From a virus: a stretch of DNA of 44,466 bases. Below, piece by piece: positions 9,566 through 30,218 of this stretch. The stretch lies in the IMG/VR virus record IMGVR_UViG_3300045988_053012, positions 1 to 44,466 of that record, one strand, 5' to 3'. How positions within the stretch are numbered: position 1 is the first letter of the stretch; each line of letters starts with the position of its first letter. The translations under genes were made by a program, and so were the position numbers. Below the pieces are notes generated by a model. The model saw only the letters and a program-made list of their open reading frames with translations, was not told the DNA's origin and did not search any database.

Positions 9566-9587
9566 GGGGGCGGTTTCGGCCGCCCCT
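9566..9587 (+). other. GC-rich stem-loop between holin and endolysin (weak terminator or attenuator)
   Basis: GGGGGCGG / tttcgg / CCGCCCCC, followed by only TTT. Confidence 0.4.
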
Positions 9588-11215: not shown

Positions 11216-11273
11216 CGATATTTGCACAAACCGACAGATTCTTATACGCAACAATAGGTTTTCGGCCTGTTAA

Positions 11274-11297
11274 CCGTCCCGATAGGGGCGGTTTTTT
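11274..11297 (+). terminator. Intrinsic terminator after the tail/lysis operon
   Basis: CCGTCCC / gata / GGGGCGG (one G-U pair), followed by T6. Confidence 0.75.
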
Positions 11298-11454
11298 CGT
11301 TTCATTCCGGATTTGGCCGTTTTTAGGCGATTTCCCGGGCTTGTGCGGAACGGGTGGCACAACTTATCATCCGCGCCGTAAAAGTGTCTTAAATCGAAGA
11401 AATGCAAAAAAATAACTTATTTTGGCTTAAACCTAAAAAAATATAAAAAAAACT

Positions 11455-11530
11455 TTTGGAAATTAAAAATAAATAACTACCTTTGTGCCGTGGTTGATAT
11501 GACAACCCGACGGACGCGGCCGGTTCCGCG
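11455..11530 (+). promoter_or_regulatory. Early promoter A plus structured leader
   Basis: TTTG 11455-11458, then 19 nt, then TAccTTTG 11478-11485. Leader hairpin 1 is GGTTG 11492-96 / CAACC 11503-07. Leader hairpin 2 is CGCGG-CCGGTT-CCGCG 11515-11530. ATG at 11549. Confidence 0.65.
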
Positions 11531-11548
11531 ATTGAAACAACAACAGTT

Positions 11549-11782
11549 ATGGCAATGTTGAAATACACAACCCGTCAAATCAACGGCAATTACAAAATCA
11601 AGGTTTCCGGCCTGTACGATGGCAAGAAAATAAACACGTTGGTTGGAGTTTCGGGTCTTATTAAAATAGTTGACGACATCGAATTAACCAACCGTCTTTT
11701 GGACCGGGCCTTTGCCTGTATGGATGGCAAATGCGTTTGCAAATTGCGCCGTGGAATACGTGTCAGTTTTTACGTTCATTGA
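11549..11782 (+). CDS. Hypothetical protein
   Basis: 77 aa; first cistron after promoter A. Confidence 0.55.
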   Translation: MAMLKYTTRQINGNYKIKVSGLYDGKKINTLVGVSGLIKIVDDIELTNRLLDRAFACMDGKCVCKLRRGIRVSFYVH

Positions 11783-11900
11783 AAAATTACTATCGTTTGC
11801 AACGAACGGTTGTTTGCCCCAACCGATACGAAATTTAATACCCTGTAAAGTAAATCCACGGGGGCAAAACGTGGGTTGAAATACGGGGCGTTTTTGTATT

Positions 11901-12158
11901 ATGAAAATATGCGTTATGAATAAGGCACGATTTCAATTATTGGCGGACGCAACAATGATGATGGCCGCCGCGATGGACAACCAGTTGTTCGACACGGGGC
12001 CGTCCAAAGTTTACGTCAAGCCCATATCCAAAACGGATTTGCCAAGTTGGGACATAAACGGGGCGGTCATTTACGCAAAGGATGAAAAGACGGCCACGAA
12101 ATACGCCAAGAAACGCGGTTTGTGGCGTCCGGGAACGATTGTTAAACCCATCAAATAA
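11901..12158 (+). CDS. Hypothetical protein
   Basis: 85 aa; + strand operon position. Confidence 0.5.
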   Translation: MKICVMNKARFQLLADATMMMAAAMDNQLFDTGPSKVYVKPISKTDLPSWDINGAVIYAKDEKTATKYAKKRGLWRPGTIVKPIK

Positions 12159-12270
12159 ACTGATATGCAAAAATTCAAATTCGGGAATCCCTTAACGTTT
12201 GTTGATGTTTCCAAAAACCCGTTGGACCGTCCGGAACCGGGCAACCGGTACACAAAAAAAAGAAAGCAAG

Positions 12271-12543
12271 ATGGCAAAGATTATTGAAAATGAAAAAGGA
12301 TTTAAGGTTATCGAAATTGATTCCCTTGAAATGCAGAAAATAGGTTGCGGCAATATATGCGACCATTGCGGCAAACCACATTGGGGAAAAGGTTATTATG
12401 TTGCCGTTCTCAACCGTTGGTTTTGCCCGCCCTGTTACGAAGATTGGTACAAATTTGCCACCAATTACGCAAACAAACACAACGCCGACGGGCGGGTTGA
12501 AACAAAGAATTTCGAATTTTATAAAAAATTGTTGGGGCTATGA
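12271..12543 (+). CDS. Hypothetical zinc-ribbon protein
   Basis: CGNICDHCG ... FCPPCYEDW motifs. ATG 12271, preceded by an A-rich leader, preferred over the TTG 12199 used by the track. Confidence 0.55.
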   Translation: MAKIIENEKGFKVIEIDSLEMQKIGCGNICDHCGKPHWGKGYYVAVLNRWFCPPCYEDWYKFATNYANKHNADGRVETKNFEFYKKLLGL

Positions 12544-12782
12544 TGGCGCAAATTGAGAACATCCCGGATGGGTACATTGTCGGGGTGTTTTTAAGGGATG
12601 GTAACGGATATGGACAATGGCACAGGTTGCGCAATTTCGGCGACCGCCAAGGCGACGCAATCGAATTTCGGGAATGGGATTTACCCACGTTCACGGATGA
12701 GCAAATACGATTGTTCATTAAGACATTCAAGATTGAAAATAAGTATAAACGTTTAGGCAAAAACAAGTATGCAAAAGTATAG
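12540..12782 (+). CDS. Hypothetical protein
   Basis: 80 aa; ATGA start/stop overlap with the upstream gene. Confidence 0.55.
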   Translation: MMAQIENIPDGYIVGVFLRDGNGYGQWHRLRNFGDRQGDAIEFREWDLPTFTDEQIRLFIKTFKIENKYKRLGKNKYAKV

Positions 12783-12838
12783 ATTTTCCAACCCGGCGGC
12801 GGCCGCCCGGATGGCGATTGAAAATTACCGAAAGGATT

Positions 12839-13135
12839 ATGGCCAAGAAATCAAGTAAAGCGACCCGGAAACAAATGTACCGGGAAATCATCAAAAAAGA
12901 GGGCCGGAAATGGGACGATTGCAAGGTATTGGCGTTCGCGTTCAAACAAGAACGGCGGCCCGAACTATTCCATTTCGGGTTGATGTTGCACGAACCGCGC
13001 CCGGTTTATTACCTATTCGATTGCTGGGACAAATACGCCAACGTCATTGTACCGAAAGATGAAAAGAACGCGGCTATTATCGTTGCCATTGCGGAAAAGG
13101 ACGGCGGCGAAAAGACAATCCCGAATTTGCGATAA
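12839..13135 (+). CDS. Hypothetical protein
   Basis: 98 aa from ATG 12839 (the track opens at TTG 12818). Basic N-terminus. Confidence 0.5.
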   Translation: MAKKSSKATRKQMYREIIKKEGRKWDDCKVLAFAFKQERRPELFHFGLMLHEPRPVYYLFDCWDKYANVIVPKDEKNAAIIVAIAEKDGGEKTIPNLR

Positions 13136-13136
13136 G

Positions 13137-13307
13137 ATGGAAAAAATTGAACCATATACGGATGTTGAACGCAAATGTATTGCGCATAAATGTAAACATT
13201 TTATTTGTTGGCAATATTGGGGTCGGGAATTGCATTCGTGCGAACTTGCGGGCGAAAGCAATACAATTGAAGAACCGGCGAAAAATCCCAATTGTTATAT
13301 AAAATAA
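13137..13307 (+). CDS. Hypothetical Cys-rich small protein
   Basis: 56 aa from ATG 13137 (MEKIEPYTDVERKCIAHKCKHFICW...). The upstream part of track ORF 13047.. overlaps the previous gene. Confidence 0.45.
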   Translation: MEKIEPYTDVERKCIAHKCKHFICWQYWGRELHSCELAGESNTIEEPAKNPNCYIK

Positions 13308-13432
13308 ACTTTATGGAAACAAATATAATCATCCAAGAGTTACGCGCCCGGGCTTCACTGGGTTGGAACCCGGAATAACAAGCGTGGTTCGACCAACAGG
13401 CCAACGACGCGCGGCCGGTCCAATGTGTCCGG

Positions 13433-13855
13433 ATGCGGGATGCGTTTACGCCGGAACAATTGCAATTCCTGTTCAAAAAACTTGGTTACAAGACACAACA
13501 AAAACAGTGTTACAGGAACGCGGCCGAATTGGTGCGATTGATTGGTGCGTTTACTTTGACGACGGCCCCAGTTCGATATGTTGAGGGTTTCGCGTATTGT
13601 GATGGCCTGTTATCTATCGAACACGCCTTTGTTAAGGTTGGCGACCTGTACATTGACCCAACATTTGAACGGGCCTTGCATTTGGACGTCCGTAAAGAAA
13701 TTTACGCATCTTGCATCGAATTGAACCCGGAAACGATGGACCGTTACCAATTGGAAACCGGCTTTTACGGGGAATTGTACCAATACGATTATTTATGCAA
13801 GAATCGGCCGGAATTGGCGGCCAAGATGCGGGTGCGGAATCCGCACAACCGTTGA
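13433..13855 (+). CDS. Transglutaminase-like / papain-like cysteine peptidase fold protein (putative)
   Basis: Cys-His-Asp layout: QCYRNAAELVRL ... VRYVEGFAY ... IEHAFVKVGDLYIDPT. The frame stays open upstream to an in-frame TAA at 13376 (see findings). Confidence 0.45.
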   Translation: MRDAFTPEQLQFLFKKLGYKTQQKQCYRNAAELVRLIGAFTLTTAPVRYVEGFAYCDGLLSIEHAFVKVGDLYIDPTFERALHLDVRKEIYASCIELNPETMDRYQLETGFYGELYQYDYLCKNRPELAAKMRVRNPHNR

Positions 13856-14085
13856 TGGATGCAAAAACCCCGCCCGGACGAATCCCGGCGGGGCGGTCAA
13901 AATACCGATGTGGGCGATACGATGAGGTAAAAAGACGCAACAAAGATAGGGAAAATTCGGCGATTGGCGAAATTCCCTATTTCTTTTTGTTTTGCGTTGG
14001 CTTTTCACGATACCCGGTTTGGGCCGAAATCTTGCACTCGGATTCAAGAAAAATGCACTTTTTTTCGTAAAAATTAAAAAAATTT

Positions 14086-14160
14086 TTTGGTTTTAAGAGG
14101 AAAGCACTATATTTGTACCCGGGTTCGATAATGAAACCCACGGCCCGGGCCGGTTCCCGG
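14086..14160 (+). promoter_or_regulatory. Early promoter B plus structured leader
   Basis: TTTG 14086-89 and TAtaTTTG 14108-15. Hairpin 1 is GGGTT 14121-25 / AACCC 14135-39. Hairpin 2 is CCGGG-CCGGTT-CCCGG 14145-14160. ATG at 14176. Confidence 0.65.
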
Positions 14161-14175
14161 TAAAGAACAAAAGTT

Positions 14176-14442
14176 ATGGAATACACAACGAATTTGGTTT
14201 ATTCAGTTAAGAAAACAAACGGTACAAACCGTTACGCCCTTTCCATCAGTCACACAATTTACGACAACCCGGTTAATTTCGGAACATTGGGTTTGGTTAG
14301 TGAAATCTTTACGGTCCACTATACTTGGAAAAACGCCAAGCGTTCAATGAATAATTTAACGTTATATCCAACCAAAACGCTTGCCGAATCAATGAAATTG
14401 GCCGAAAAGAAAATTAAACAAATGGAAGAAAAAATAAAGTAA
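14176..14442 (+). CDS. Hypothetical protein
   Basis: 88 aa; first cistron after promoter B. Confidence 0.55.
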   Translation: MEYTTNLVYSVKKTNGTNRYALSISHTIYDNPVNFGTLGLVSEIFTVHYTWKNAKRSMNNLTLYPTKTLAESMKLAEKKIKQMEEKIK

Positions 14443-14450
14443 GTAACCCC

Positions 14451-14470
14451 GGCCCGGGGAAACCCGGGCC
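14451..14470 (+). promoter_or_regulatory. Intercistronic GNRA-tetraloop hairpin (family copy 1)
   Basis: GGCCCGGG / GAAA / CCCGGGCC, followed by ACAAA. No U tract. 18 nt to ATG 14489. Confidence 0.6.
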
Positions 14471-14488
14471 ACAAATTCCAAATACGAA

Positions 14489-14728
14489 ATGAAAGCAAAG
14501 GTACAAACCATTATCGGGGGAAAGGTTCGCAACCATCGCGGATTCGTGGACGCGGCAAAATGGATTGACGAACGCATTAACTTTTTGTTAAACATCTATA
14601 AATTCGATGATTACAAAGTAACCTTAACCGGCAACGTATATCGCTTGGTTGCTTGGCGCAAGGCCGGAAAGCCCGGAACAAACGGAAAGGCGATGGACGT
14701 AACCCACGTTGTTACCGTTGTTGAATAG
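14489..14728 (+). CDS. Hypothetical protein
   Basis: 79 aa; operon position. Confidence 0.55.
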   Translation: MKAKVQTIIGGKVRNHRGFVDAAKWIDERINFLLNIYKFDDYKVTLTGNVYRLVAWRKAGKPGTNGKAMDVTHVVTVVE

Positions 14729-14736
14729 TTGAACCC

Positions 14737-14756
14737 GGGGCCGGGCAACCGGCCCC
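14737..14756 (+). promoter_or_regulatory. Intercistronic GNRA-tetraloop hairpin (family copy 2)
   Basis: GGGGCCGG / GCAA / CCGGCCCC, followed by ACAA. 16 nt to ATG 14773. Confidence 0.6.
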
Positions 14757-14772
14757 ACAATCCCAATCGAAT

Positions 14773-15141
14773 ATGTCCATAAATTATTACAACGAACAGA
14801 CGCGCCGCAATGGTCGCATAAATGAAATTAGGTTGAACGGCCGCACGGCATACATTGCTAATTACCAAGATGAACACGGCGTATGTTGTTCCAAAATTCG
14901 GGAAACGATGGAAGCAGCCAACCGGGATATGGAAGAACACGGATACCACAAAAAAGGAATCATTGATGAATCCGGTTGCGCACGATACACAATGACCGGA
15001 CAACAGTTGCAAAACCTGTATAAGACGTTCGAAAACTTTGTGGCAGATTGCACCCAACAGGAATACAACGAAAACAAACAGGCTATAACGGCGGTTAACA
15101 CCCTAATTCATAAACATATCAACGCCGAAATATACAAGTAA
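14773..15141 (+). CDS. Hypothetical protein
   Basis: 122 aa; last gene before terminator 15149-15171. Confidence 0.55.
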   Translation: MSINYYNEQTRRNGRINEIRLNGRTAYIANYQDEHGVCCSKIRETMEAANRDMEEHGYHKKGIIDESGCARYTMTGQQLQNLYKTFENFVADCTQQEYNENKQAITAVNTLIHKHINAEIYK

Positions 15142-15148
15142 CGATTGG

Positions 15149-15171
15149 CCCGGGAATTATCCCGGGTTTTT
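15149..15171 (+). terminator. Intrinsic terminator
   Basis: CCCGGG / aattat / CCCGGG, followed by T5. Confidence 0.7.
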
Positions 15172-15466
15172 CGTATCTTTGTCACGTTTAGTTTTTCAGT
15201 TTAACATGGTAACAGGAACGGCCAACGTTGCGAAACGTCGGCCGTTTGTGCTTTCGGCCCGTATAGGCCAATATCGGGCGATTTGGCGGCCTTTCTCGTG
15301 AAATTGGACCAACGCACCATCTTTGCGCAAAACGTGCCTTAAATCGAAAATTCGGAAAAATTAAGGTTTTGTCGGTGGCGCCTGTTTTCTTTGGTAGCCC
15401 GATTCGGACTTTTGGTTTTCGTTTTTCGGGTTCCTGGTCAAAAACTTAAAAAATTATGAAAATATT

Positions 15467-15542
15467 TTTGGTAATTAGAAAATAATACTTATCTTTGTAT
15501 CCGGGTTAAGGAAATAACCCAACGGATGAGGCCGGTTCCTCA
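15467..15542 (+). promoter_or_regulatory. Early promoter C plus structured leader
   Basis: TTTG 15467-70, then 19 nt, then TAtcTTTG 15490-97. Hairpin 1 is GGGTT 15503-07 / AACCC 15516-20. Hairpin 2 is TGAGG-CCGGTT-CCTCA 15527-15542. ATG at 15564. Confidence 0.65.
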
Positions 15543-15563
15543 AACAAAATAAACGCAATAGAA

Positions 15564-15743
15564 ATGAAAATTAACATTGTTAAAAAAGGCTTGGATTCTA
15601 ATCTTAATGAAATAAAAGTTGTCGTAAAATATGATTCTATGGGTATCAATCGGGGAACATTTTATGTTGATGCAGACGGGGAGTTTGAAATGTCCGAATA
15701 TCTGGCAAATACCCTTTTCGAAGAAAATGTATGTATTTGCTAA
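15564..15743 (+). CDS. Hypothetical small protein (59 aa, below the track cutoff)
   Basis: MKINIVKKGLDSNLNEIKVVVKYDSMGINRGTFYVDADGEFEMSEYLANTLFEENVCIC. First ATG after the promoter C leader. The minus ORF 15540..15776 is its antisense shadow. Confidence 0.55.
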   Translation: MKINIVKKGLDSNLNEIKVVVKYDSMGINRGTFYVDADGEFEMSEYLANTLFEENVCIC

Positions 15744-15753
15744 AAAATAAACC

Positions 15754-15771
15754 GGGGCGGGCAACCGCCCC
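15754..15771 (+). promoter_or_regulatory. Intercistronic GNRA-tetraloop hairpin (family copy 3)
   Basis: GGGGCGG / GCAA / CCGCCCC, followed by ACCAAA. 17 nt to ATG 15789. Confidence 0.6.
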
Positions 15772-15788
15772 ACCAAACCGAAAGCGAT

Positions 15789-15983
15789 ATGAAAACAAAA
15801 TTGAATAAGAAAGAATTGGCAACCCTTATTTCGTTATCCGAAAAGTTATGGGCGATGCGTAAGAAATTCGACCAAGAAAACGGAACCGACATTGAATTAC
15901 AGGTTAAGGAAAATGGCACCGTTGGTTCAAATTTGGATTGCGCCGTTGCCGCAATAGATACAATTTTACAGGAATATATTTAA
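15789..15983 (+). CDS. Hypothetical protein
   Basis: 64 aa; operon position. Confidence 0.5.
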   Translation: MKTKLNKKELATLISLSEKLWAMRKKFDQENGTDIELQVKENGTVGSNLDCAVAAIDTILQEYI

Positions 15984-15991
15984 GACCCCGA

Positions 15992-16007
15992 CCGGGCGGA
16001 TTCCCGG
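15992..16007 (+). promoter_or_regulatory. Leader-type hairpin (CCGGTT-loop family, internal copy)
   Basis: CCGGG / CGGATT / CCCGG. 7 nt before ATG 16015. Confidence 0.5.
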
Positions 16008-16014
16008 AACTGTT

Positions 16015-16458
16015 ATGCGATTCAAGATTGACAAAAATTTGAATGTGGTTGCGGCCGGAATGGCCGCACCCGTTGAACCCGAAACCGTGGCGGTAGAACT
16101 TTGCGCCCGTTTCGTTGATGCCGGAATGATTGACGACACGCCCGACAATTGGGGCGAATCAGTATTGGCGGCAACCGGCCCGCAATACGTTTCCAATGTG
16201 TGCGCCGTCTTGGCTGAATACCTGTATGGCGACGAATCCCATTCCATCCCGTCGGACGTGTTCGATGCTTTTTGCGCCCTTACTATTATGGGCGACGGGG
16301 ATTGCCCGCATTGTGGCGGCGAATTAAAGTTTATCGAAACAGAGGGCCACGAACTGAAAGATGGCGATTATTACACGCCCAATTCTTACGTCATTGATAA
16401 TTACGTTTATCGTTGCGTTGAATGTGGCGAAACAATTAAAACACCAAATGAATTATGA
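16015..16458 (+). CDS. Hypothetical protein with C-terminal zinc ribbon
   Basis: 147 aa; CPHCGG ... YRCVECGE. Confidence 0.55.
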   Translation: MRFKIDKNLNVVAAGMAAPVEPETVAVELCARFVDAGMIDDTPDNWGESVLAATGPQYVSNVCAVLAEYLYGDESHSIPSDVFDAFCALTIMGDGDCPHCGGELKFIETEGHELKDGDYYTPNSYVIDNYVYRCVECGETIKTPNEL

Positions 16459-16685
16459 TGCGAATTGAAGAAGCGATTGCCCGCGCAAAGCAACAGGGCA
16501 ACAAAGTATTGAAAAAGAACATTGCCGCGCGTTTGTGGCCCGATTCCACGCCGGTTGCGCAACAAGTAAACATTACGCGTTTATGCGCCGGGAAAACCCA
16601 GCGAATCAACGTTGAATGGGTTAACGTCATTTGCGAAATGACCGGATGCACGGCGGATTTCCTTTTTGGACTTTCAAACGAATAA
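16455..16685 (+). CDS. XRE-type helix-turn-helix DNA-binding protein
   Basis: 76 aa; HTH segment NIAARLWPDSTPVAQQVNITRLCAGKTQRINVEWVNVICEMTGCTADFLFG. ATGA overlap with the upstream gene. Confidence 0.6.
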   Translation: MMRIEEAIARAKQQGNKVLKKNIAARLWPDSTPVAQQVNITRLCAGKTQRINVEWVNVICEMTGCTADFLFGLSNE

Positions 16686-16689
16686 CGAT

Positions 16690-16851
16690 ATGAAAAAGGT
16701 AAATTTGTTTTGGGCCGTAATTTGGTCCGTTATGGCGGTTTTATCCGTCTTTGCAATCTTTTGGAAGCCGGCGCATTTCTTTGCGCTTGCCATTTCCGTT
16801 GTCTTTGCGGCGATGTTTTGGCACGATTACAAGAAAATGAAAGGTATGTAA
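16690..16851 (+). CDS. Small membrane protein (two TM helices)
   Basis: MKKVNLFWAVIWSVMAVLSVFAIFWKPAHFFALAISVVFAAMFW. ATG 16690 is in the frame of track ORF 16666. Confidence 0.5.
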   Translation: MKKVNLFWAVIWSVMAVLSVFAIFWKPAHFFALAISVVFAAMFWHDYKKMKGM

Positions 16852-16869
16852 TATTTAACAGGCGATACA

Positions 16870-18159
16870 ATGAAAGAAGAAAAGACAATTGACCCGGCGT
16901 TGGCCGCATTGGCTGAACCGGAACAGGAACAGGCAAAGGAAATCGCGCCCGGAATGACTGTTGAAGAAATCCGCGCCGTTTATTTCAATGCTGATGCGTT
17001 GAAAGAACCCGCGTACCGGTTGTTCCAACTCAATTCCGACGGACACCGGTATTATTACCGCTTCAACGATGCCGGGGAACCGGAATTTTACCCGTCCGTC
17101 ACGACGTTGTTAAAACAGGTTATGCCGACCGCGCCCGCCCTGTTGGATTGGATGATTGCCAACGGCAAGGATGGTTCCACGGAAAAGCGGGATTTGGCCG
17201 CCGCGTATGGAACGTTTATGCACGGCGAATTTGAAAAACTGATTATCAACCGCCGTTACGACTTTGATTCCGTCCCGGCCGCCCTGTTGGCGTATATGGA
17301 ACGGGAAAACTTGCCCGAGAAGATGTTTGCCGAATGGTTGCCGAAAGTACGAAAGGACGTGTTAGCGTTCGCCCAATTCCTCAAGGATTGGAACGTAAAG
17401 CCGTTGGCCGTGGAAATCGGTTTGTATCATCCGAAATTCCATTATGCCGGTTGCCTTGACTTGCCGTGCATTATGACCGACCCGAAAACCGGAAAATCGT
17501 TCGTGGCAATCGTGGATTTCAAAAGCGGCCGGAAAGGGTTTTACGAAGAACACGAATTGCAATTGCATTTGTACCGTGAAATGTGGAATGTCCATTATCC
17601 GGAAATGCCGGTTGCTCGTGTGTTTAACTTTTCGCCGAAAGATTGGCGCAAGGCCCCGACATACAATTTGAAAGACCAAACGGATTCCGTGAATGCCAAG
17701 AAATTGCCGTACCTGTTGGCGTTGGCAACGATTGAGGATGAAAAGCGGGATAACACGTTGACGATTGTACGCGGCGTTTTGGACCTTGACAACGGCAAGA
17801 TTGCCGACAACATCTTGACGTTATCGTTGGCCGACCTTATCAAGACGAAAGCGGCCGAAAAGGACGCACCCGAACAGGCGGCGAAAGCCCCGGAAAAGAC
17901 GGATTCGCCGGAACCCGCCCAAAAAGGCCGTAAACGAGCCGTAAAAGCAACGAAAGAACCCGAACCGGTAAATACCCCGTCCGAACCGGAAAAACCCGTT
18001 AAAACGAAGATTCCGAAAAAATTACCGGATGATGGCGCAACGGACAAATTGCCGTGGGAAAACGAACCGGAACCGGCCAAGTCCACCGGACCCACGCCGG
18101 AACAGATAACGGAACAGGCGGCAAAGGATAATTTGTTAAACGATGAAATCGAATTGTAA
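16870..18159 (+). CDS. PD-(D/E)XK family nuclease (RecB/Cas4/lambda-Exo-like) with a disordered C-terminal tail
   Basis: 429 aa. Core motifs GCLDLPC ... AIVDFKSGRKG ... ELQLHLY. The last ~100 aa are P/E/K-rich. Confidence 0.65.
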   Translation: MKEEKTIDPALAALAEPEQEQAKEIAPGMTVEEIRAVYFNADALKEPAYRLFQLNSDGHRYYYRFNDAGEPEFYPSVTTLLKQVMPTAPALLDWMIANGKDGSTEKRDLAAAYGTFMHGEFEKLIINRRYDFDSVPAALLAYMERENLPEKMFAEWLPKVRKDVLAFAQFLKDWNVKPLAVEIGLYHPKFHYAGCLDLPCIMTDPKTGKSFVAIVDFKSGRKGFYEEHELQLHLYREMWNVHYPEMPVARVFNFSPKDWRKAPTYNLKDQTDSVNAKKLPYLLALATIEDEKRDNTLTIVRGVLDLDNGKIADNILTLSLADLIKTKAAEKDAPEQAAKAPEKTDSPEPAQKGRKRAVKATKEPEPVNTPSEPEKPVKTKIPKKLPDDGATDKLPWENEPEPAKSTGPTPEQITEQAAKDNLLNDEIEL

Positions 18160-18161
18160 CT

Positions 18162-18518
18162 ATGACGGTCAAGGATTTACAAATTGGGTCGCCGGTTTAT
18201 CGTATGCGACTGGATTCAATAGACATTTACCGTGTTCGTCTTATTGAGCAATTACCAGATAATACGCGTTTGGTTGAATTGAACACAACGTGGAAAGTGC
18301 GTTGCAAGGCCAAGGAAGATGCAACCGAAATGCGTAATATCAATTCATCGGAATCGGTTTGGTATGTCAACATTGAGGATGCCGAATTGGCCCAACTTAT
18401 GCGCCGTTCCGAACACGTCGAAGAATTGAAAAAGGCGATGGAAAATGCACAAAGCGCGTTTGCGGAAGCAATACAGAAATACGCGTTTTCCGAACCATCA
18501 ACACCAAAAGAATTGTAA
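18162..18518 (+). CDS. Hypothetical protein
   Basis: 118 aa; operon position. Confidence 0.55.
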   Translation: MTVKDLQIGSPVYRMRLDSIDIYRVRLIEQLPDNTRLVELNTTWKVRCKAKEDATEMRNINSSESVWYVNIEDAELAQLMRRSEHVEELKKAMENAQSAFAEAIQKYAFSEPSTPKEL

Positions 18519-18520
18519 CA

Positions 18521-18778
18521 ATGTACACAATTGAGAAAAAACGCAAAGAGGGTTACTATTATGTTACCCGTCAATATTTCATTCTTACCGCGCACCCGTT
18601 TATGAATTTCAAAACATTTGTTGATGCGCGAAAAGGTATGCGAAACACGCCCAAAACCTGTTTTGTTTGCAATCATAAATTTGCGGATGATGAAACAATA
18701 TATTTGGCCCCGGTTGTGCGGGACAAAAACCGTATTGTGTGCGAACATTGTGCAACGATAATCAACAAACATCAATAA
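18521..18778 (+). CDS. Hypothetical zinc-ribbon protein
   Basis: 85 aa; CFVCNH ... CEHCA. Confidence 0.55.
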   Translation: MYTIEKKRKEGYYYVTRQYFILTAHPFMNFKTFVDARKGMRNTPKTCFVCNHKFADDETIYLAPVVRDKNRIVCEHCATIINKHQ

Positions 18779-18779
18779 T

Positions 18780-19505
18780 ATGGGCGGACGTATTTACAGG
18801 CCCGAACAGGGCGTGGCAATCCTTGAATTGCCCGAAATCGGCCGGTTGCACATCGGCAAAAAACAGATGGGTCAAAACGGCAAGGAATACCCGGTTTCCG
18901 TGGATTATTTCATACCGGCTGGAAAGTATGCCGGGATGTTCACGCAAGCGTTGGGCGAAAAGCCACAAACAATCCAAATCATTTTCCCGGATGATTCCCC
19001 GGAAAAGGTATGCAACGAACGTTATGAATACCGCGACAATGCGGGCGCATTGGTTGCCAAGGGTGACGGCCGGACGTTCGAAATATGGGACGGAAAAAAA
19101 TACGTTCCATATTCGACTGATGCGTACCCGGATATTATGGAACAAATCGCAAAGAACAACCCGACCAAACGCGGGACCGAAAATTGGGATATTGTCTTAA
19201 CGTTGCGATTCATTGTTCCGGCCGTCCGTGGAATTGTTGGCGTATGGCAATTTTCCACAAAGGGCAAGGCGTCAAGCGTCCGGAATATCCGGGAATCGTT
19301 CGACGGTGTGCAAATGATGCGCGGAACGGTTACGCAAACCGTGTTCGATTTGTCGGTACAGTTTGCCAAAAGCAACAAACCCGGCGTGTCGTCCCGTTAT
19401 CCTGTTGTTTCGTTGGTTGCCAATGATACGCGGATTGAGGAAATACGCCAAGCAATTGCACCGACGCAAAATTTATCGTTACTATTGCCGGATAAAGAAA
19501 AATAA
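18780..19505 (+). CDS. Hypothetical protein (recombination/replication-associated by context only)
   Basis: 241 aa; downstream of the PD-(D/E)XK nuclease; I recognise no named motif. Confidence 0.5.
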   Translation: MGGRIYRPEQGVAILELPEIGRLHIGKKQMGQNGKEYPVSVDYFIPAGKYAGMFTQALGEKPQTIQIIFPDDSPEKVCNERYEYRDNAGALVAKGDGRTFEIWDGKKYVPYSTDAYPDIMEQIAKNNPTKRGTENWDIVLTLRFIVPAVRGIVGVWQFSTKGKASSVRNIRESFDGVQMMRGTVTQTVFDLSVQFAKSNKPGVSSRYPVVSLVANDTRIEEIRQAIAPTQNLSLLLPDKEK

Positions 19506-19506
19506 C

Positions 19507-19544
19507 TATCTTTGTGGCAGATAATTGACAATGGCGGTTGTCAA
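19507..19544 (+). promoter_or_regulatory. Promoter-like -7 box plus operator-like palindrome
   Basis: aaaaataacTAtcTTTG with the box at 19507-19514; the -33 is only ATTG. A perfect inverted repeat TTGACAA-n6-TTGTCAA (19525-19544) follows. Confidence 0.4.
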
Positions 19545-19558
19545 GATGGGAAATTAAA

Positions 19559-19616
19559 GCCCGGCAAAGTAGATGACGCGCCGCCACGCGTCGTTGAAAT
19601 GTCGGGCATTTTTTTT
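19559..19616 (+). terminator. Strong intrinsic terminator abutting the replication-module start codon
   Basis: Outer stem GCCCGGCA 19559-66 / TGTCGGGC 19600-07. Inner stem GACGCG 19575-80 / CGCGTC 19587-92. T8 at 19609-16; ATG at 19622. Confidence 0.75.
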
Positions 19617-19621
19617 GGAAA

Positions 19622-20416
19622 ATGACGTACAATTTGAATATAGACCAAGAATTTGCGATTGTCAACGACCTTTCGTTGGTACATGTTTCCACGCTGGCCG
19701 CGTTTATGACGTTGCCGATATGGACCAAGACAATTGCAATTGACGGGTTCGTGTGGTATCAGTATTCCGACGAAAAGATGGCCGACGATTTCCCGTTATT
19801 GTTTGGCGTGGCGAAAAGGTGTTACAAGAACATTGCCGAATTGGCCGCGTTGGGATTCGTTGAATTAACCAAGTTGGGACGCACGAAATATGTTAGGTTC
19901 ACGAAACGTTGTGCCGATTGGGGAAAGCAAAAAGAACAAATCCGGTCCAACGGTCCGAAAACGGACCGAGAACAGACCGAAAACGGACCGGCAATTAGTC
20001 CGAAAACGGACCCGGTAAATAATAACTATAACATTACCAATCCGAGCATTGAAGATAAAGCCGCCGACGGCGGTTTGTTCCCGACCGAACCTGCGTTTGA
20101 AACGGTTACAGTTACCCGGCCGCGCCGGACCGCCGAACCGGCCGTGTGTCTGTTCGAAAATTCCCGTTTCGCCGAATACAATGCGTTTGCCGCCGAATTT
20201 ACAGCCCCGGAATTTGCCGACGTGGATATTGTCTATTATTACCACGCCGTTGCGGATTGGTCCGCACAAAAGGGCAAGAAAATGAAAGATTGGATTGCAA
20301 CCGCGCGGAATTTCATTCGTGGCGATAAGGAAAAGAACAAGTTGCACCGGAAAAGCGGAACCGGACCGGGATTGTCACCGGATGCAATTAAATATTTGCA
20401 AGATATGGCAGATTAA
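19622..20416 (+). CDS. Replication initiator / replisome-organizer candidate
   Basis: 264 aa. Carries dyad iterons plus an AT-rich tract mid-gene (lambda O-like layout). The C-terminal YYYHAVADWSAQKGKKMKDWIATARNFIRGDKEK resembles DnaD/phage organizer tails (from memory). Confidence 0.45.
   Translation: MTYNLNIDQEFAIVNDLSLVHVSTLAAFMTLPIWTKTIAIDGFVWYQYSDEKMADDFPLLFGVAKRCYKNIAELAALGFVELTKLGRTKYVRFTKRCADWGKQKEQIRSNGPKTDREQTENGPAISPKTDPVNNNYNITNPSIEDKAADGGLFPTEPAFETVTVTRPRRTAEPAVCLFENSRFAEYNAFAAEFTAPEFADVDIVYYYHAVADWSAQKGKKMKDWIATARNFIRGDKEKNKLHRKSGTGPGLSPDAIKYLQDMAD
19953..20040. repeat. Putative origin of replication: three 14-bp dyad iterons plus an AT-rich tract
   Basis: G(T/A)CCGAAAACGGAC at 19953-66, 19975-88 and 19998-20011, spaced 22-23 bp. 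Followed by about 25 nt of ~84% A+T (20016-20040). Confidence 0.55.
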
Positions 20417-20419
20417 GCG

Positions 20420-21316
20420 ATGGAACAGAATAACCAAATTGACGTTCGGCCGGTACAGAAAACGGCCGTTATGATACGCCGGGAAATGGTCAAGATTCCC
20501 GCCGTTATGGGTGCATTGGGACCTGTTGAAAAGGCCGTATTTCTTGCGTCCACGGCGAAAACCATTGCCGAATACGACGCCGCCGAACTTGCGGCCGAAC
20601 TTGCAACGGCCTTGAAATGGATTTGCAAAGATGTTGGGTACAGGTCACAGGATGAAAGCGACCGCCAATATTTGGTGATTCGGACGGCGGAAATACTAAA
20701 ACGGTATTATTCCGGTTTGACGTTAAAGGATTTCCGGATGGCGTTTGAAATGAGCATTACCGGCGAATTGGATGATTTCATTCCGCGTGGGCGCGATGGC
20801 CAACCCGACCGAAACCATTACCAGCAATTCAACGCCGAATATGTATGCAAAATTTTGAACGCGTACAAAGGCCGCCGGGCGTTGGTATTGAGGAAAGCAA
20901 ACGAAGCGGTCCCGAAAGAGGAACCAAAACGCGACCCGGCAAAAGATAGGTATTACAGGAACGAAACCCGCCGTAATTGCATCAATGCGTTCGAATCGTT
21001 AAAAGCAACCGGCCGGTTGCCCGAAATGTCGCTAATTGCTGAAAGGTTATGTTACAACGAATTGGCCGATGCCGGACTTGCCGATAAAATCGAAATTACG
21101 TTGGAAGAACAAAAGGTTATATTGCAACGCACAATCAACGATTACGCCCGGCGCGGATATGTCGGCGACGTTCGCCGGTTAAAGGAATCCGGGACATCCG
21201 ACCCGGAATTGGAACACGGTTCGTTCGTATTGGCCCGGCGCAAGGCGTTGTCCGCAACATTCCGCCGAATTGTTGAACAGGGAATAAACATTACCGATTA
21301 CATCAAATTAGAATAA
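20420..21316 (+). CDS. Hypothetical protein (replication module)
   Basis: 298 aa; no Walker motif seen. Confidence 0.55.
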   Translation: MEQNNQIDVRPVQKTAVMIRREMVKIPAVMGALGPVEKAVFLASTAKTIAEYDAAELAAELATALKWICKDVGYRSQDESDRQYLVIRTAEILKRYYSGLTLKDFRMAFEMSITGELDDFIPRGRDGQPDRNHYQQFNAEYVCKILNAYKGRRALVLRKANEAVPKEEPKRDPAKDRYYRNETRRNCINAFESLKATGRLPEMSLIAERLCYNELADAGLADKIEITLEEQKVILQRTINDYARRGYVGDVRRLKESGTSDPELEHGSFVLARRKALSATFRRIVEQGINITDYIKLE

Positions 21317-21525
21317 TGGAAAAACCGTGTACAACGTGCAAATATGGGGAAAAACAATATCGTCGTATTCCACGACCCGATAAATACTTATACACTTTAC
21401 ACGACGTTTACGCCGGAATCATTTGTAAAAAATACAATGGACCGTTTGGCCGGGATTGTCTGTTATATCAAAATTGGCGTATCATTCAAAAGGCCCAACG
21501 ATTACAAAATAGAGCAAAAAAGTAA
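21316..21525 (+). CDS. Hypothetical Cys-rich protein
   Basis: 69 aa; TAATG overlap with the upstream stop. Preferred over the alternative frame 21344..21553. Confidence 0.45.
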   Translation: MEKPCTTCKYGEKQYRRIPRPDKYLYTLHDVYAGIICKKYNGPFGRDCLLYQNWRIIQKAQRLQNRAKK

Positions 21526-21536
21526 CATATTTTTCG

Positions 21537-22097
21537 ATGGAACAGAAAATTAAAATCAATTGCGTTATTGGCATTGACCCGGGCGCGGGCGGCGGAATTG
21601 CCGTGTTTGTTCCCGGCCACAATACAAAGGTGTTGAAGATGCCGAAAGACATTACCGAATTGCGGGATTTCATCACGTATTACAAAGACAATTTCAAACC
21701 GATTGTCTTTTTGGAAAAATTGTCGGTCCGTCCGGACGACGTAGTTGTACAGGGCGACCGGGCCGCGATGGGAAAGTTGTACCGGGTGCAAAAGATGATG
21801 GCGAATTTCGAACATCTTAAAGCCCTAATCGAAATGTCCGGGATTCCGTATGTATTGGTTCATCCGCTTTCGTGGCAAACCAAATTGAAATTGCGCGTTC
21901 GTGGCGTTCACGAAGAAAAGGCCGACCGGAAACGCCGGTATAAGGATGCGGCCGCGCAATTGTACCCGGGCGTTAATGCGACATTATGGAACGCCGACGC
22001 CCTGTTGTTAATGCACTTTGGCCGGTGGGCGTTAGTTAATGAACCGAAATGGGTAAAGGCTAATTTGCCGGAACGGGAATATCAAAAATTGTTTTGA
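21537..22097 (+). CDS. RuvC-like Holliday junction resolvase
   Basis: 186 aa; VIGIDPGAGGGIAV, FLEKL and NADALLLMHFG acidic catalytic positions. Confidence 0.7.
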   Translation: MEQKIKINCVIGIDPGAGGGIAVFVPGHNTKVLKMPKDITELRDFITYYKDNFKPIVFLEKLSVRPDDVVVQGDRAAMGKLYRVQKMMANFEHLKALIEMSGIPYVLVHPLSWQTKLKLRVRGVHEEKADRKRRYKDAAAQLYPGVNATLWNADALLLMHFGRWALVNEPKWVKANLPEREYQKLF

Positions 22098-22117
22098 TAC
22101 GAATACTTGATGATTAA

Positions 22118-22390
22118 ATGGACCGAATCTTTGTTATCGTAACGCCTGTTTGCCCGCATTACCCCGGGCGTAAGGTTGGTTCGAAAGAGTGTACGCAATG
22201 CGACCATTTCCGGGGCGGAATCGTACAAAATTTCGTGGATTGCGCACACAATCGCCCGGAAATAGAACAGAAAACCCCGAAATCGGCACGGAAAGCCGCC
22301 GAAATAGCACAACCGGCCAAGAAAAGAGGACGGCCCGCGAAAAAGGCCATTTCCAAGCCTATAAAGACACGCAAAAAGAAAAATGGATAA
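22118..22390 (+). CDS. Small Cys-cluster protein with a basic AT-hook tail
   Basis: 90 aa; CPHY...CTQCDH...CAH cluster, then AKKRGRPAKKA and a K-rich end. Confidence 0.5.
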   Translation: MDRIFVIVTPVCPHYPGRKVGSKECTQCDHFRGGIVQNFVDCAHNRPEIEQKTPKSARKAAEIAQPAKKRGRPAKKAISKPIKTRKKKNG

Positions 22391-22613
22391 GTTGTACCAA
22401 GACGGGACGAAATGCCCGCAAATCGAAAATTTGGAAAAAATAACGCCCGAACAGGCGGCGGAATACGTGCGATTCGTCGCACACGTCCGACACACGCAAC
22501 GCCGGTATTTCGCTTTTCGCAAATCGGAAATTTTGAATGAATCCCGGCGGTTGGAAAAAGAGTTGGACGCGTTGAACGCGCATTTGTTGGACCCAACACC
22601 AAAGTTGTTTTGA
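22383..22613 (+). CDS. Hypothetical protein
   Basis: 76 aa; overlaps the upstream stop. Confidence 0.5.
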   Translation: MDKLYQDGTKCPQIENLEKITPEQAAEYVRFVAHVRHTQRRYFAFRKSEILNESRRLEKELDALNAHLLDPTPKLF

Positions 22614-22614
22614 T

Positions 22615-22857
22615 ATGAACGTGGACCCCAAAACCAACAAAGGCGATATTATTGCGTCGGTTTATGCAAAACCCGGAACGTTTGCGGAAATTGTCCAGCG
22701 ATTCGGCAATGTTTCACAATATGCGGTTTTTTCTTATATCGTGCCACTTATTGAAAAATTGGCGGATGATGGGTATTTACGCAAGTGTAAAAACGGGATG
22801 GTATATGCCCGCAAAAAGGGAATCGAATACATAAAAGAACACGGATATTTTGATTGA
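22615..22857 (+). CDS. Hypothetical protein (possible winged-helix)
   Basis: 80 aa; operon position. Confidence 0.5.
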   Translation: MNVDPKTNKGDIIASVYAKPGTFAEIVQRFGNVSQYAVFSYIVPLIEKLADDGYLRKCKNGMVYARKKGIEYIKEHGYFD

Positions 22858-23182
22858 AGAAATGGAAAAATTAAAACCGTTGACGGTTCCGTTGTTGGCC
22901 GTCCATCATTACGGCCCGGAACATCAAAAGCGAAAGGCCATTGAAGAAATGGGCGAATTGATAACCGAATTGGAACGTGAACAGGACGGCCTGACAACCC
23001 CGGAAAAGGTTATTACCGAAATCGCCGACGTACTTTTGACGATTCGCCAATTGATGGTCATATACGGGTTGGATGCCTGTTTGAAAGAATACGACCGGAA
23101 ACAACGTCGGTTGTTGCGCCGGATGGATAAGGAAACCGGCGGCGATTACCGAAAGACAAACGAAGATGAAAACAAAAGTTGA
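22850..23182 (+). CDS. MazG-like nucleotide pyrophosphohydrolase
   Basis: 110 aa; AIEEMGELITELERE ... ITEIADVLLTIRQL. Confidence 0.65.
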   Translation: MIEEMEKLKPLTVPLLAVHHYGPEHQKRKAIEEMGELITELEREQDGLTTPEKVITEIADVLLTIRQLMVIYGLDACLKEYDRKQRRLLRRMDKETGGDYRKTNEDENKS

Positions 23183-23369
23183 TGCGTATATTGCCCGGGA
23201 CCCGAACGGGATTTGCCGGGTTATTGTCAAGCGGGCCAAATTCAAACATTGGTTCGAATTAGGCCAACACGGGCCGACCGACGCCGCGTTTGAACAGGCA
23301 TTGGCGGCCGGAACGGTACGATGGAATCCGGCGATTGAGGACAAAACACGACTTTTTCGTAAAATTTAA
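23166..23369 (+). CDS. Hypothetical protein
   Basis: 67 aa; operon position. Confidence 0.5.
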   Translation: MKTKVDAYIARDPNGICRVIVKRAKFKHWFELGQHGPTDAAFEQALAAGTVRWNPAIEDKTRLFRKI

Positions 23370-23378
23370 CTGAAAATG

Positions 23379-23454
23379 TTTGGAAATATAAAAATTATCC
23401 TTATCTTTGTACCCGGGTTGAGGAAACAACACCACCGCCCCGGCGGGTTCCGGG
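23379..23454 (+). promoter_or_regulatory. Early promoter D plus structured leader
   Basis: TTTG 23379-82, then 19 nt, then TAtcTTTG 23402-09. Hairpin 1 is GGGTTG 23415-20 / CAAC(A)CC 23427-33. Hairpin 2 is CCCGG-CGGGTT-CCGGG 23439-23454. ATG at 23475. Confidence 0.65.
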
Positions 23455-23522
23455 ATACAAAACGACAAAGAATTATGGAACAGGTAACGAAATTCGGAAT
23501 GATTTATTGGTAAAACGTTGCA

Positions 23523-23774
23523 TTGCGTGAAACTTTACGCGCCGCGAACGCAAAAGATTACATCTTGCGTCGCAAAGTTGACCGCCGTTTTAAGGAAATA
23601 GCCAATGAACTTGTAATGGGTCGCGGATATGTTATTGCAACGGCGTTCGAGTTGGAACAGAAATACCCGGATTTGTTCAATGCTGGTGGCGTTGATTCAA
23701 AAAAAATGATTTGGGCTATTTCGTTTTCAAAATTTCGCGCGGGAAACAAAATGTGCTTTGTACCGGTTCGTTAA
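23523..23774 (+). CDS. Hypothetical HTH-like protein; ORF lacks its own ATG and is in frame with a 12-codon ORF (23475..23513) across a TAA
   Basis: The track start is TTG 23523. Sequence includes DYILRRKVDRRFKEIANELVMGRGYV (HTH-like). See the finding on 23475..23774. Confidence 0.4.
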   Translation: MRETLRAANAKDYILRRKVDRRFKEIANELVMGRGYVIATAFELEQKYPDLFNAGGVDSKKMIWAISFSKFRAGNKMCFVPVR

Positions 23775-23782
23775 ATAGACTT

Positions 23783-23853
23783 TGCTTCGTGGTGTAACGG
23801 TAACACCCCGGATTTTGGTTCCGGTAATCCACGTTCGAATCGTGGCGGGGCAA
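23783..23853 (+). tRNA. tRNA-Gln (anticodon UUG)
   Basis: 71-nt cloverleaf. Acceptor TGCTTCG/CGGGGCA (two G-U pairs). D arm GTGT-AACGGTA-ACAC. Anticodon arm CCGGA-TTTTGGT-TCCGG. T arm CCACG-TTCGAAT-CGTGG. CCA is not encoded. Confidence 0.8.
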
Positions 23854-23857
23854 CAAA

Positions 23858-23953
23858 GGAAATAAGGCGGAAGCGGCGAGGGTAAAATAAGTCCGCGACG
23901 GCGGCATAATATACGCACATTGTGCGGGTTCCGGCTTAGCCAACCTTATTTCC
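23858..23953 (+). ncRNA. Structured RNA candidate filling the inter-tRNA spacer
   Basis: Perfect 10-bp closing stem GGAAATAAGG / CCTTATTTCC. Internal hairpins CGCAC-att-GTGCG and CCGC-gacg-GCGG. Starts 4 nt after tRNA-Gln and ends 6 nt before tRNA-Leu. Not a cloverleaf. Confidence 0.45.
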
Positions 23954-23959
23954 CCACAT

Positions 23960-24040
23960 ACCCACGTGGCGTAATGGTAGCCGCGATTGATTCAAAACCA
24001 ATTGCCGTATGGCGTGCCGGTTCGATTCCGGCCGTGGGTA
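23960..24040 (+). tRNA. tRNA-Leu (anticodon CAA), class II
   Basis: 81 nt. Acceptor ACCCACG/CGTGGGT. D arm GCG-(taatggtagc)-CGC. Anticodon arm ATTGA-TTCAAAA-CCAAT (A-C at 31:39). 13-nt variable arm GCC-gtat-GGC. T arm GCCGG-TTCGATT-CCGGC. Confidence 0.7.
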
Positions 24041-24249
24041 CAAAGTTCTTTGAAATGCAATCTTTGATGTTTTTAGGCGTAAGACCGTCAACGCCCCGTG
24101 AAAAAATATGTGAATGTCACAGGCGTTTAAGTTGGCATTTTGCCGTAATACAAAATCACACTTTCCGGTAAAGTTCGTGCGAAGAATGGCCACAATAATC
24201 CAATTGCAAACCGAAAACCATAGATTGCATTTCTTTTGAAAAATACGGA

Positions 24250-24265
24250 CCGGGCCGATTCCTGG
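24250..24265 (+). promoter_or_regulatory. Leader-type hairpin (CCGGTT-loop family copy)
   Basis: ACGGA-CCGGG / CCGATT / CCTGG (one G-U pair), followed by GAACAAAACC. 19 nt to ATG 24285. Confidence 0.5.
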
Positions 24266-24751: not shown

Positions 24752-24771
24752 GGGGCCGGGCAACTGGCCCC
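24752..24771 (+). promoter_or_regulatory. Intercistronic GNRA-tetraloop hairpin (family copy 4)
   Basis: GGGGCCGG / GCAA / CTGGCCCC (one G-U pair), followed by ACAAAAAA. 16 nt to ATG 24788. Confidence 0.6.
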
Positions 24772-26197: not shown

Positions 26198-26242
26198 ACC
26201 AAATCGCCGGGGCGGTCCCGATGCCGTCCCGGATATACTGAT

Positions 26243-30030: not shown

Positions 30031-30218
30031 AAATGATTGAATTTGTTATAGATAGGACCGTAACAAAACGTCCTTGCGTATATAAAAAAGTTGGGAACAC
30101 ATTATACCCGATTATGTATTTCCACAAAGCCAAAAACGCATCAAATGAGGATTTTGAAGCGTTGTACAACTACATTATCGGGAAAAAAGTTAAATTTAAC
30201 AAACAGTTGACAAAATGA
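30027..30218 (+). CDS. Hypothetical protein
   Basis: 63 aa; ATGA overlaps on both sides. Confidence 0.5.
   Translation: MKMIEFVIDRTVTKRPCVYKKVGNTLYPIMYFHKAKNASNEDFEALYNYIIGKKVKFNKQLTK

Follow-up and report, generated by a model that had tools for sequence, protein, structure and literature searches.

The viral genome IMGVR_UViG_3300045988_053012, analysed over its full 44,466 nucleotides (nt; hereafter the window), carries in its early region six copies of a small element which, judged by covariation and steric plausibility, is in each case a 20-nt H-type RNA pseudoknot on the mRNA strand. The strands follow one another as flank, 5′ arm, loop and 3′ arm. Three flank bases lying one base ahead of the hairpin are predicted to pair with loop bases 1 to 3, giving a 3-base pair (bp) stem 1, a 1-nt loop 1, no loop 2, a G+C-rich 5-bp stem 2 and a 3-nt loop 3. 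As far as can be read from sequence, the motif is new but belongs to a class of structured RNA already known, the cis-acting leader pseudoknot; it is unusually small and its covariation support is unusually good.

A sequence-only reading of the same DNA had reported six 16-nt hairpins, and the positions and sequences that it gave all proved correct, on the coding strand in every case. Copy 1 (11511-11530; like the others, on the + strand) comprises stem 1 (CGG at 11511-11513 with CCG at 11520-11522), loop 1 (A, 11514), stem 2 (11515-11519 with 11526-11530) and loop 3 (GTT, 11523-11525), and precedes ATG 11549 of a gene for a 77-amino acid early protein. Copy 2 (14141-14160) pairs CGG at 14141-14143 with CCG at 14150-14152 and 14145-14149 with 14156-14160, has C (14144) as loop 1 and GTT as loop 3, and is followed by ATG 14176. 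Copy 3 (15523-15542) pairs CGG at 15523-15525 with CCG at 15532-15534 and TGAGG at 15527-15531 with CCTCA at 15538-15542; loop 1 is A (15526), loop 3 is GTT and the ATG is at 15564. The intercistronic copy 4 (15988-16007) begins 5 nt past the stop codon at 15981-15983, in the same operon as copy 3; here CCG (15988-15990) pairs with CGG (15997-15999) and 15992-15996 with 16003-16007, loop 1 is A (15991), loop 3 is ATT and the ATG is at 16015. In copy 5 (23435-23454), CCG (23435-23437) pairs with CGG (23444-23446) and 23439-23443 with 23450-23454, with C (23438) as loop 1 and GTT as loop 3; its ATG, at 23475, opens an open reading frame (ORF) of just 12 codons (23475-23513), and two tRNA genes come next. 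Copy 6 (24246-24265) pairs CGG (24246-24248) with CCG (24255-24257) and 24250-24254 with 24261-24265, the latter including one G-U pair; loop 1 is A (24249), loop 3 is ATT and the ATG is at 24285. From the end of the stem to the start of the ORF, copies 1 to 6 leave 18, 15, 21, 7, 20 and 19 nt. Between every copy and its start codon lies an A-rich stretch for which no pairing is predicted. Stem 1 is thus CGG:CCG in four copies and CCG:CGG in two, fully paired in all six.

A scan of both strands of the window for a 5-bp stem closing the loop C[CG]G[AG]TT returned just these six sites on the + strand and one weak A/U-G/U-rich match on the − strand; first-order Markov simulation gave a mean of 1.09 per strand and a maximum of 4 (100 runs). 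When pairing between flank and loop was added to the definition, the window held six sites on the + strand and none on the −, against a simulated mean of 0.14 and a maximum of 2 (300 runs).

Pairing between flank and loop was assessed in related phages using a set assembled blind to the flank. From 85 sources (the window, four isolates and 80 IMG/VR loci; 1.46 Mb), every + strand core GGCNNNTTCC with its three outer stem positions paired was collected, the flank being unused in selection. This yielded 155 sites with 79 distinct 32-mers. Among the 79 distinct copies, the helix between flank and loop was 92% paired, compared with 66% after shuffling and 22-52% when the partner was slid along the sequence. 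Its covariation score of 0.52 (0.12 when shuffled) was reached by none of 500 shuffles. Beyond the two stem 1 types of the window, relatives have ACG:CGU, CUG:CAG, CAG:CUG and CGC:GCG, six types in all, and their loops read CCGGTT, CGGGTT, CGTTTT, CCGATT, CGGATT, CAGATT, CTGATT and GCGGTT. The loop had been called nearly invariant, which holds within this genome and not across relatives, where bases 1 to 3 vary and covary with the 5′ flank; the flank, noted as usually ACGG, turns out to contain the strand of stem 1 that pairs with the loop.

With the six window copies as its only input and stem 2 as its sole structure, a covariance model was searched against the same 85 sources at E ≤ 1. It gave 188 matches, approximately 176 of them on the + strand; the 12 on the − strand were weak, and 11 of those overlapped + copies. 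This search, which the sequence-only reading had proposed as a check, thus came out positive, with the element conserved on the coding strand of homologous phages. The additional matches vary both of the closing pairs that had looked invariant (CCGAA/TTCGG, CCGGA/TCCGG, CCAGA/TCTGG, CGTGC/GCACG) and contribute the stem 1 type CGC:GCG. In the merged set of 95 distinct sequences, double-sided changes occur at all 8 pairs and 97.2% of cells are paired. At least 15 types of stem 2 were seen. Several types of both stems are found at the orthologous leader of the 77-amino acid gene alone, which indicates that these are real evolutionary substitutions. Loop 1 is A in 73 of the 95, C in 16 and G in 6; loop 3 is GUU in 48, UUU in 25, AUU in 16, AUA in 5 and GUC in 1, so that its middle U is invariant. 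No column outside the pseudoknot is conserved in this alignment.

Single-sequence folds of the leaders by ViennaRNA were not significantly more stable than those of shuffled sequences, and the structural evidence is therefore comparative rather than thermodynamic. A 1-nt loop 1 spanning 5 bp and a 3-nt loop 3 spanning 3 bp fall inside the ranges of solved pseudoknots (Pleij's rules and the T2 gene 32 structure).

The strand on which the pairing is kept bears on whether the element acts as RNA or as DNA. All outer pairs of the core form at 155 of the 228 + strand sites (68%) and at 17 of the 251 − strand sites (7%). Covariation and this coding-strand bias uphold the earlier description of a strand-specific covarying RNA element in early-operon leaders and, together with its position in predicted transcripts, argue strongly for action at the RNA level. 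The 5-bp arms could alternatively be read as an inverted repeat some 20-35 bp past the predicted transcription starts, where repressors could block elongation; the element would then be a palindrome at which a dimeric DNA-binding regulator acts or, failing that, a hairpin of single-stranded DNA with a part in replication or packaging. Either is hardly credible. The half-sites are not conserved, complementarity alone being kept (CCGGG, CGCGG, TGAGG, CCAGA, CGTGC and others), and complementarity between flank and loop has no meaning in duplex DNA; these two observations largely refute a DNA operator. Additionally, the orientation is strictly that of the coding strand, and 60 of the 155 copies lie far from promoters.

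Neither Rfam nor the literature yielded a counterpart, in keeping with the earlier remark that no equivalent is known in Bacteroidota phages. Rfam 15 at gathering score found only two tRNAs in the window, and no relevant match appeared in 11400-16100 at E values up to 10. Full-text literature searching returned no mention of the element, and the paper describing phage PDS1 does not discuss phage promoters, terminators or hairpins. Mimicry of the tRNA T-arm and T-loop, a candidate prompted by the GG-loop-CC arrangement and by a seed scan that caught true tRNA 3′ ends, was rejected, since the loop has 6 nt and not 7, lacks T54-A58 and is paired with the flank.

The distribution of the copies indicates that the element is a cassette of individual early and middle cistrons. 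It occurs downstream of every early promoter and, in addition, between some cistrons. A Bacteroidota-type promoter pattern, TTTG-N17-23-TAnnTTTG (the −33/−7 naming of which reportedly comes from Bayley et al. in 2000), is matched on the + strand upstream of four of the six copies, at 11455-11485 (copy 1), 14086-14115 (copy 2), 15467-15497 (copy 3) and 23379-23409 (copy 5 and the tRNA genes). Of the other two, the copy with its stem at 15992 is intercistronic; that at 24250 lies behind two tRNA genes, has no promoter of its own and is probably driven by the promoter at 23379-23409 as well. As copy 5 precedes only a 12-codon ORF, that promoter may mainly serve the tRNAs. The gene behind copy 4 has its own promoter, 5′ hairpin and pseudoknot in one relative (L026/L087). 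Among the 155 copies of the flank-blind set, a full promoter match lies ahead of 89 and a −7 box alone ahead of 6, whereas 60 have no promoter within 110 nt, some being kilobases from any. The distance from the 3′ end of the pseudoknot to the first ATG has its mode at 19 nt (69 copies) and is mostly 14-22 nt, and intercistronic copies open 3-5 nt past the upstream stop codon. Two copies can share an operon, as at 15527 and 15992 in the window (465 nt apart) and at 11056 and 11351 in phage AS73P1 (295 nt), in each case with no terminator between them. A position directly behind tRNA genes recurs in two relatives binned into metagenome-assembled genomes (MAGs; L178 and L200, approximately 7 nt past the tRNA 3′ end). 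Furthermore, an identical promoter-leader cassette stands ahead of unrelated ORFs in different relatives. The late and structural regions contain no copy: the late promoter match there, with leader 35273-35367 before gene 35368, is followed by a different hairpin (GCGGC-caagggtaa-GCCGT).

The copies are not terminators, as had been stated: no U tract follows any of the six, the sequence there being A-rich, and none was listed in a + strand scan for intrinsic terminators. The real + strand terminators, at 11272-11293, 15147-15168 and 19559-19616, look quite different from the element. Two of these enter the earlier analogy with lambdoid boxB/nut sites, under which the element would be a signal for processive antitermination, either bound by an N-like protein or acting directly on RNA polymerase in the manner of HK022 put, and would allow read-through of 15147-15168 and 19559-19616. 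Both terminators are strong and lie downstream of copies of the element, which itself comes shortly after each early promoter and is there one of a pair of consecutive structures, an arrangement reminiscent of put. The block at 19622-23369, behind the second terminator, has no consensus promoter, so some read-through must occur. It is mainly this promoterless block that leaves antitermination a small probability; overall we consider it very unlikely. The boxB analogy itself is not supported, since the loop is a strand of a second helix, with bases 1 to 3 varying as the complement of the 5′ flank, and is not a free, GNRA-like recognition loop. No boxA-like linear motif is conserved alongside it in the 95-sequence alignment. 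A Pfam and PHROG scan of approximately 45 window proteins found no match to N, Q or another antiterminator, which is weak evidence given the small size and rapid divergence of N proteins. Antitermination would need no more than one loading site per promoter, yet many copies are intercistronic, kilobases from promoters or doubled within a few hundred nt, and most keep a 14-22 nt spacing to the start codon that antitermination does not require. Moreover, the replication genes of PDS1, AS73P1 and TCUEAP2 are contiguous, without an annotated gap at the equivalent junction.

The junction at 19507-19621 has a layout of its own that resembles an attenuator or a read-through control point of the replication block. 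A −7-like box, TATCTTTG (19507), for which there is no good −33 element, comes first; behind it lie a small hairpin (TTGACAA/TTGTCAA) and then the long, strong terminator at 19559-19616, which has a run of 8 T and ends 5 nt before a replication-initiator-like gene at 19622.

A second hairpin between the −7 box and the element (GGGTT..AACCC or GGTTG..CAACC), also pointed out previously, is real. It is 87% paired in 21 relatives, with double-sided changes at 3 of its 5 pairs, and occurs as GGGTT/AACCC, GGAAG/CTTCC, GGATT/AATCC, GGGTC/GGCCC and GGGG/CCCC. RNAalifold on whole leaders missed it owing to alignment register, and it was found by explicit pair counting. On the + strand of the window it lies at 11492-11507 in leader 1 (GGTTG/CAACC), 14121-14139 in leader 2 (GGGTT/AACCC), 15503-15520 in leader 3 (GGGTTA/TAACCC) and, imperfectly, 23416-23432 in leader 5 (GGTTG/CAAC-C). 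In the window's clade, transcripts are predicted to start at this hairpin or close to it. The clade of AS73P1, PDS1 and TCUEAP2 is without it, and there the stem of the pseudoknot begins 19 nt past the −7 box, compared with 28-29 nt in the window's clade.

Relatives of the window were sought through the 77-amino acid early protein (11549-11782), for which tblastn identified cultured Bacteroidota siphoviruses: AS73P1 (Alistipes), PDS1 and PD491P1 (Parabacteroides), the Bacteroides phages C1_85S2P and BKO1-3, the Elizabethkingia phage TCUEAP2 and, more distantly, PD691P4 and the Croceibacter phage P2559S. Megablast of the region against isolated phages gave no match. In IMG/VR, at least 370 contig stretches have a gene for a relative of the protein. 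The commonest version of the 20-mer is present in more than 120 viral contig stretches among the matches listed; the element is widespread in gut viromes. Among isolated phages this version is confined to the present group. Across 185,579 species genomes, a scan with this one 20-mer, and hence with one stem version, returned only phage-like MAG-binned contigs of 40-46 kb and chance matches in high-GC genomes. PD691P4 (OP172817; L329) and P2559S (L080) share the 77-amino acid gene and are without the pseudoknot. In PD691P4 the early leaders are approximately 25-30 nt long, unstructured and A-rich, so that the promoter leads straight into the start codon; the pseudoknot occupies approximately the position at which the mRNA 5′ end would lie in leaders of this type. 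Since PD691P4, without the element, and PDS1, with it, infect the same host species, the pseudoknot goes with the phage lineage and is not demanded by the host.

A variant of the element follows another early promoter of AS73P1 (L077, 14004-14024). There a CCC flank, an A linker and a CCGGG/CCCGG stem enclose a 7-nt loop, GGGAATA, giving a CCC:GGG stem 1 and a 4-nt loop 3, with the ATG just 7 nt away. The PDS1 counterpart (L078, approximately 4590) keeps two of the three stem 1 pairs.

As to function, we tentatively favour a module that works in cis and post-transcriptionally, at the 5′ margin of the zone where ribosomes land, and that would serve to dock the 30S subunit and ribosomal protein S1, to protect against 5′-end-dependent decay, or both; we put its probability a little short of even. 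Under this proposal the 20-nt pseudoknot would act in cis, after transcription, on early mRNAs that lack a Shine-Dalgarno sequence. Most likely it would be a docking or standby structure for 30S via ribosomal protein S1, and it might in addition form a roadblock shielding the A-rich zone from 5′-end-dependent RNase scanning or from upstream interference. Each early gene would thereby have an expression signal that is portable and works independently. Translational control or processing of early mRNAs had been a secondary suggestion of the sequence-only reading, and it fits better than boxB, the copies being per-cistron and next to an unstructured A-rich start region. According to PMC6847099, Bacteroidota mRNAs lack Shine-Dalgarno sequences and initiation is tuned by structure and upstream bases. 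A precedent for docking is provided by tisB mRNA, in which a 5′ pseudoknot beside a single-stranded tract is needed for binding of 30S and S1 and for translation; S1 binds H-type pseudoknots at nanomolar affinity (PMC7708055). A bolder form of the proposal, which we hold to be decidedly unlikely, is that the phage brings with it, in the form of the pseudoknot, a stand-in for the Shine-Dalgarno interaction. This would be a 20-nt docking structure, a bacterial 'mini-IRES' (internal ribosome entry site), that captures the Bacteroidota 30S subunit through S1 or the platform, gives early phage mRNAs priority over host mRNAs in a phylum with ribosomes that disregard Shine-Dalgarno sequences, and travels as a promoter-leader cassette.

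Several observations weigh against a role in docking or protection. The near-constant spacing to the ATG may result from genome compaction and a minimum clearance for the ribosome, in which case it does not discriminate between functions; it is weaker evidence still because an unrelated family of hairpins with GNRA tetraloops keeps the same distance to start codons. The element is absent from PD691P4, from P2559S and from all late genes, and so is not needed for translation in these hosts. The 7-nt spacer of copy 4 would place the structure inside the normal 30S footprint. In leaders 1 and 3, the flank can instead pair with a 5′ CCG at the base of the first hairpin. Finally, restriction to early and middle genes and rigid geometry would equally well fit a specific trans-acting partner.

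Such a partner is the basis of the main rival, in which the pseudoknot would be a shape-specific operator for a phage protein or nuclease that times the translation or mRNA stability of early genes, following the logic of T4 gene 32 or RegA/RegB. We consider this unlikely. Confinement to early and middle leaders agrees with it, the 35273 leader and all structural genes being without the element. So does rigidity over large divergence: stem 1 always has 3 bp, stem 2 always 5 bp and loop 3 always 3 nt, and loop 1 is mostly A (73 of 95). This rigidity may, however, be no more than a folding requirement of so small a pseudoknot. The element is also lineage-specific, with phages that have it and phages that lack it sharing a host species, and Bacteroidota chromosomes lack its commonest sequence version. 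In T4, too, the gene 32 operator, which controls the translation of an mRNA more stable than any other of that phage, is a compact pseudoknot, from which an A/U-rich tract without structure leads into the start site (PMC3014915). Autoregulation in the style of gp32 is not indicated, as the gene for the single-stranded DNA-binding protein (30215-30640; Pfam SSB) has no upstream pseudoknot. No RNA-binding or nuclease domain was detected by Pfam or PHROGs in any early protein scanned.

One weak lead towards a partner protein, which we do not count as evidence, is the ORF at 22383-22613 (76 amino acids). It is the sole ORF of the window that is present in all three pseudoknot-bearing isolates and in neither of the two pseudoknot-free ones. 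Its product has a conserved arginine-rich helix (VRHTQRRYFAFRK) and 246 unannotated homologues, many on phage-sized contigs (approximately 40-47 kb). The AlphaFold model is a helical hairpin with a pLDDT (predicted local distance difference test) of 78, for which Foldseek returned generic helical bundles and no informative neighbour. The association with the pseudoknot thus rests on five genomes, BLAST is weak for so short a protein, and the fold is uninformative.

The GNRA-tetraloop hairpins form a second intercistronic family in the window, at 14451-14470, 14737-14756, 15754-15771 and 24752-24771 (also 26207-26232 and 9566-9587). They have G+C-rich stems of 7-10 bp, mostly GNRA tetraloops (GAAA, GCAA) and no U tract, and occupy gaps of a nearly constant 44-47 nt, starting approximately 10 nt past the stop codon and leaving 17-20 nt to the ATG that follows. 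A role in mRNA stability or processing is possible.

The window itself is a complete, circularly permuted phage genome of approximately 44.35 kb (~44,347 bp): bases 1-119 are identical to 44348-44466, which marks the assembly as complete and either circular or terminally redundant. Every gene lies on the + strand, with structural and lysis genes from approximately 35.3 kb through the origin to 11.2 kb, and small early genes followed by recombination and replication genes at 11.5-35.2 kb. tRNA-Gln(UUG) (23783-23854) and tRNA-Leu(CAA) (23960-24041) lie between copies 5 and 6. A possible extra promoter with a very short leader, TAACTTTG at 32567, stands before the small terminase gene (ATG 32591). 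Deposited annotations of two relatives, MN929097 (PDS1) and PQ571267 (BKO1-3), look unreliable: the label 'ribosomal large subunit pseudouridine synthase B' is given both to a DUF6549 protein and to the 77-amino acid early protein, and PDS1 has an 'RNA polymerase sigma factor' directly ahead of its gene for the large terminase, a position that a terminase small subunit-like protein, a possible counterpart, takes in the window.

The signals that govern gene expression in Bacteroidota phages have scarcely been studied. Here a very small, sharply defined, strongly covarying RNA structure sets apart the early genes in a gut phage lineage that is abundant, and cultured carriers are at hand in PDS1 (Parabacteroides distasonis), AS73P1 (Alistipes) and TCUEAP2 (Elizabethkingia), so that its function is directly testable. 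As a translation enhancer or mRNA stabiliser, it would offer a compact, portable expression part for engineering Bacteroides; as an operator, it would point to an unknown regulator of the early-to-late switch.

Comparison with known systems places the element among several partial likenesses. With lambdoid nut sites it shares a short structure with a 5-bp stem of variable sequence in leaders past early promoters. However, boxB presents a free GNRA-like pentaloop that is read by an arginine-rich peptide, whereas here bases 1 to 3 of a 6-nt loop are helical and covarying, no boxA or N homologue was found, and the distribution is per-cistron with a fixed spacing to the start codon. HK022 put, which acts without a phage protein, is a two-hairpin RNA of approximately 65-70 nt that occurs once per early promoter. 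Two successive structures right after early promoters are common to both; the present unit, in contrast, is 20 nt long, also stands alone between cistrons and is tied to start codons. In the preQ1-I riboswitch the loop pairs with the 3′ tail, whereas here it pairs with the 5′ flank.

The T4/T2 gene 32 operator, in the leader of a phage mRNA, is similarly a compact H-type pseudoknot with coaxial stems and a 1-nt (A) loop 1, and it gives way to an A/U-rich tract that is unstructured and reaches into the start site; the loop sizes of the T2 structure, including the single-nucleotide (A) loop 1, were reportedly described by Du, Giedroc and Hoffman in 1996. There the pseudoknot has approximately 28 nt and the ATG is approximately 40-67 nt away, compared with 20 nt (3 + 5 bp) and approximately 19 nt here, where many early genes and not the SSB gene carry the element; the two have no sequence homology. 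The tisB standby site lies approximately 100 nt from a sequestered ribosome binding site, unlike the open and adjacent start region seen here, and shows no sequence similarity. Nevertheless, the S1-binding pseudoknots of tisB (+42) and of SELEX (systematic evolution of ligands by exponential enrichment) resemble the element in being H-type, 5′-proximal and beside a single-stranded tract, which fits hosts that initiate without Shine-Dalgarno pairing. The 5′ stabilisers of ompA, ermC and aprE are obstacles to RNase E scanning that lengthen mRNA life. They are plain hairpins of loose geometry at the extreme 5′ end, unlike the rigid pseudoknot, ahead of which approximately 10 nt are unpaired in one clade. 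In both cases, however, a stable structure lies upstream of an A/U-rich ribosome binding region, and the extra 5′ hairpin of the window's clade resembles a classic stabiliser.

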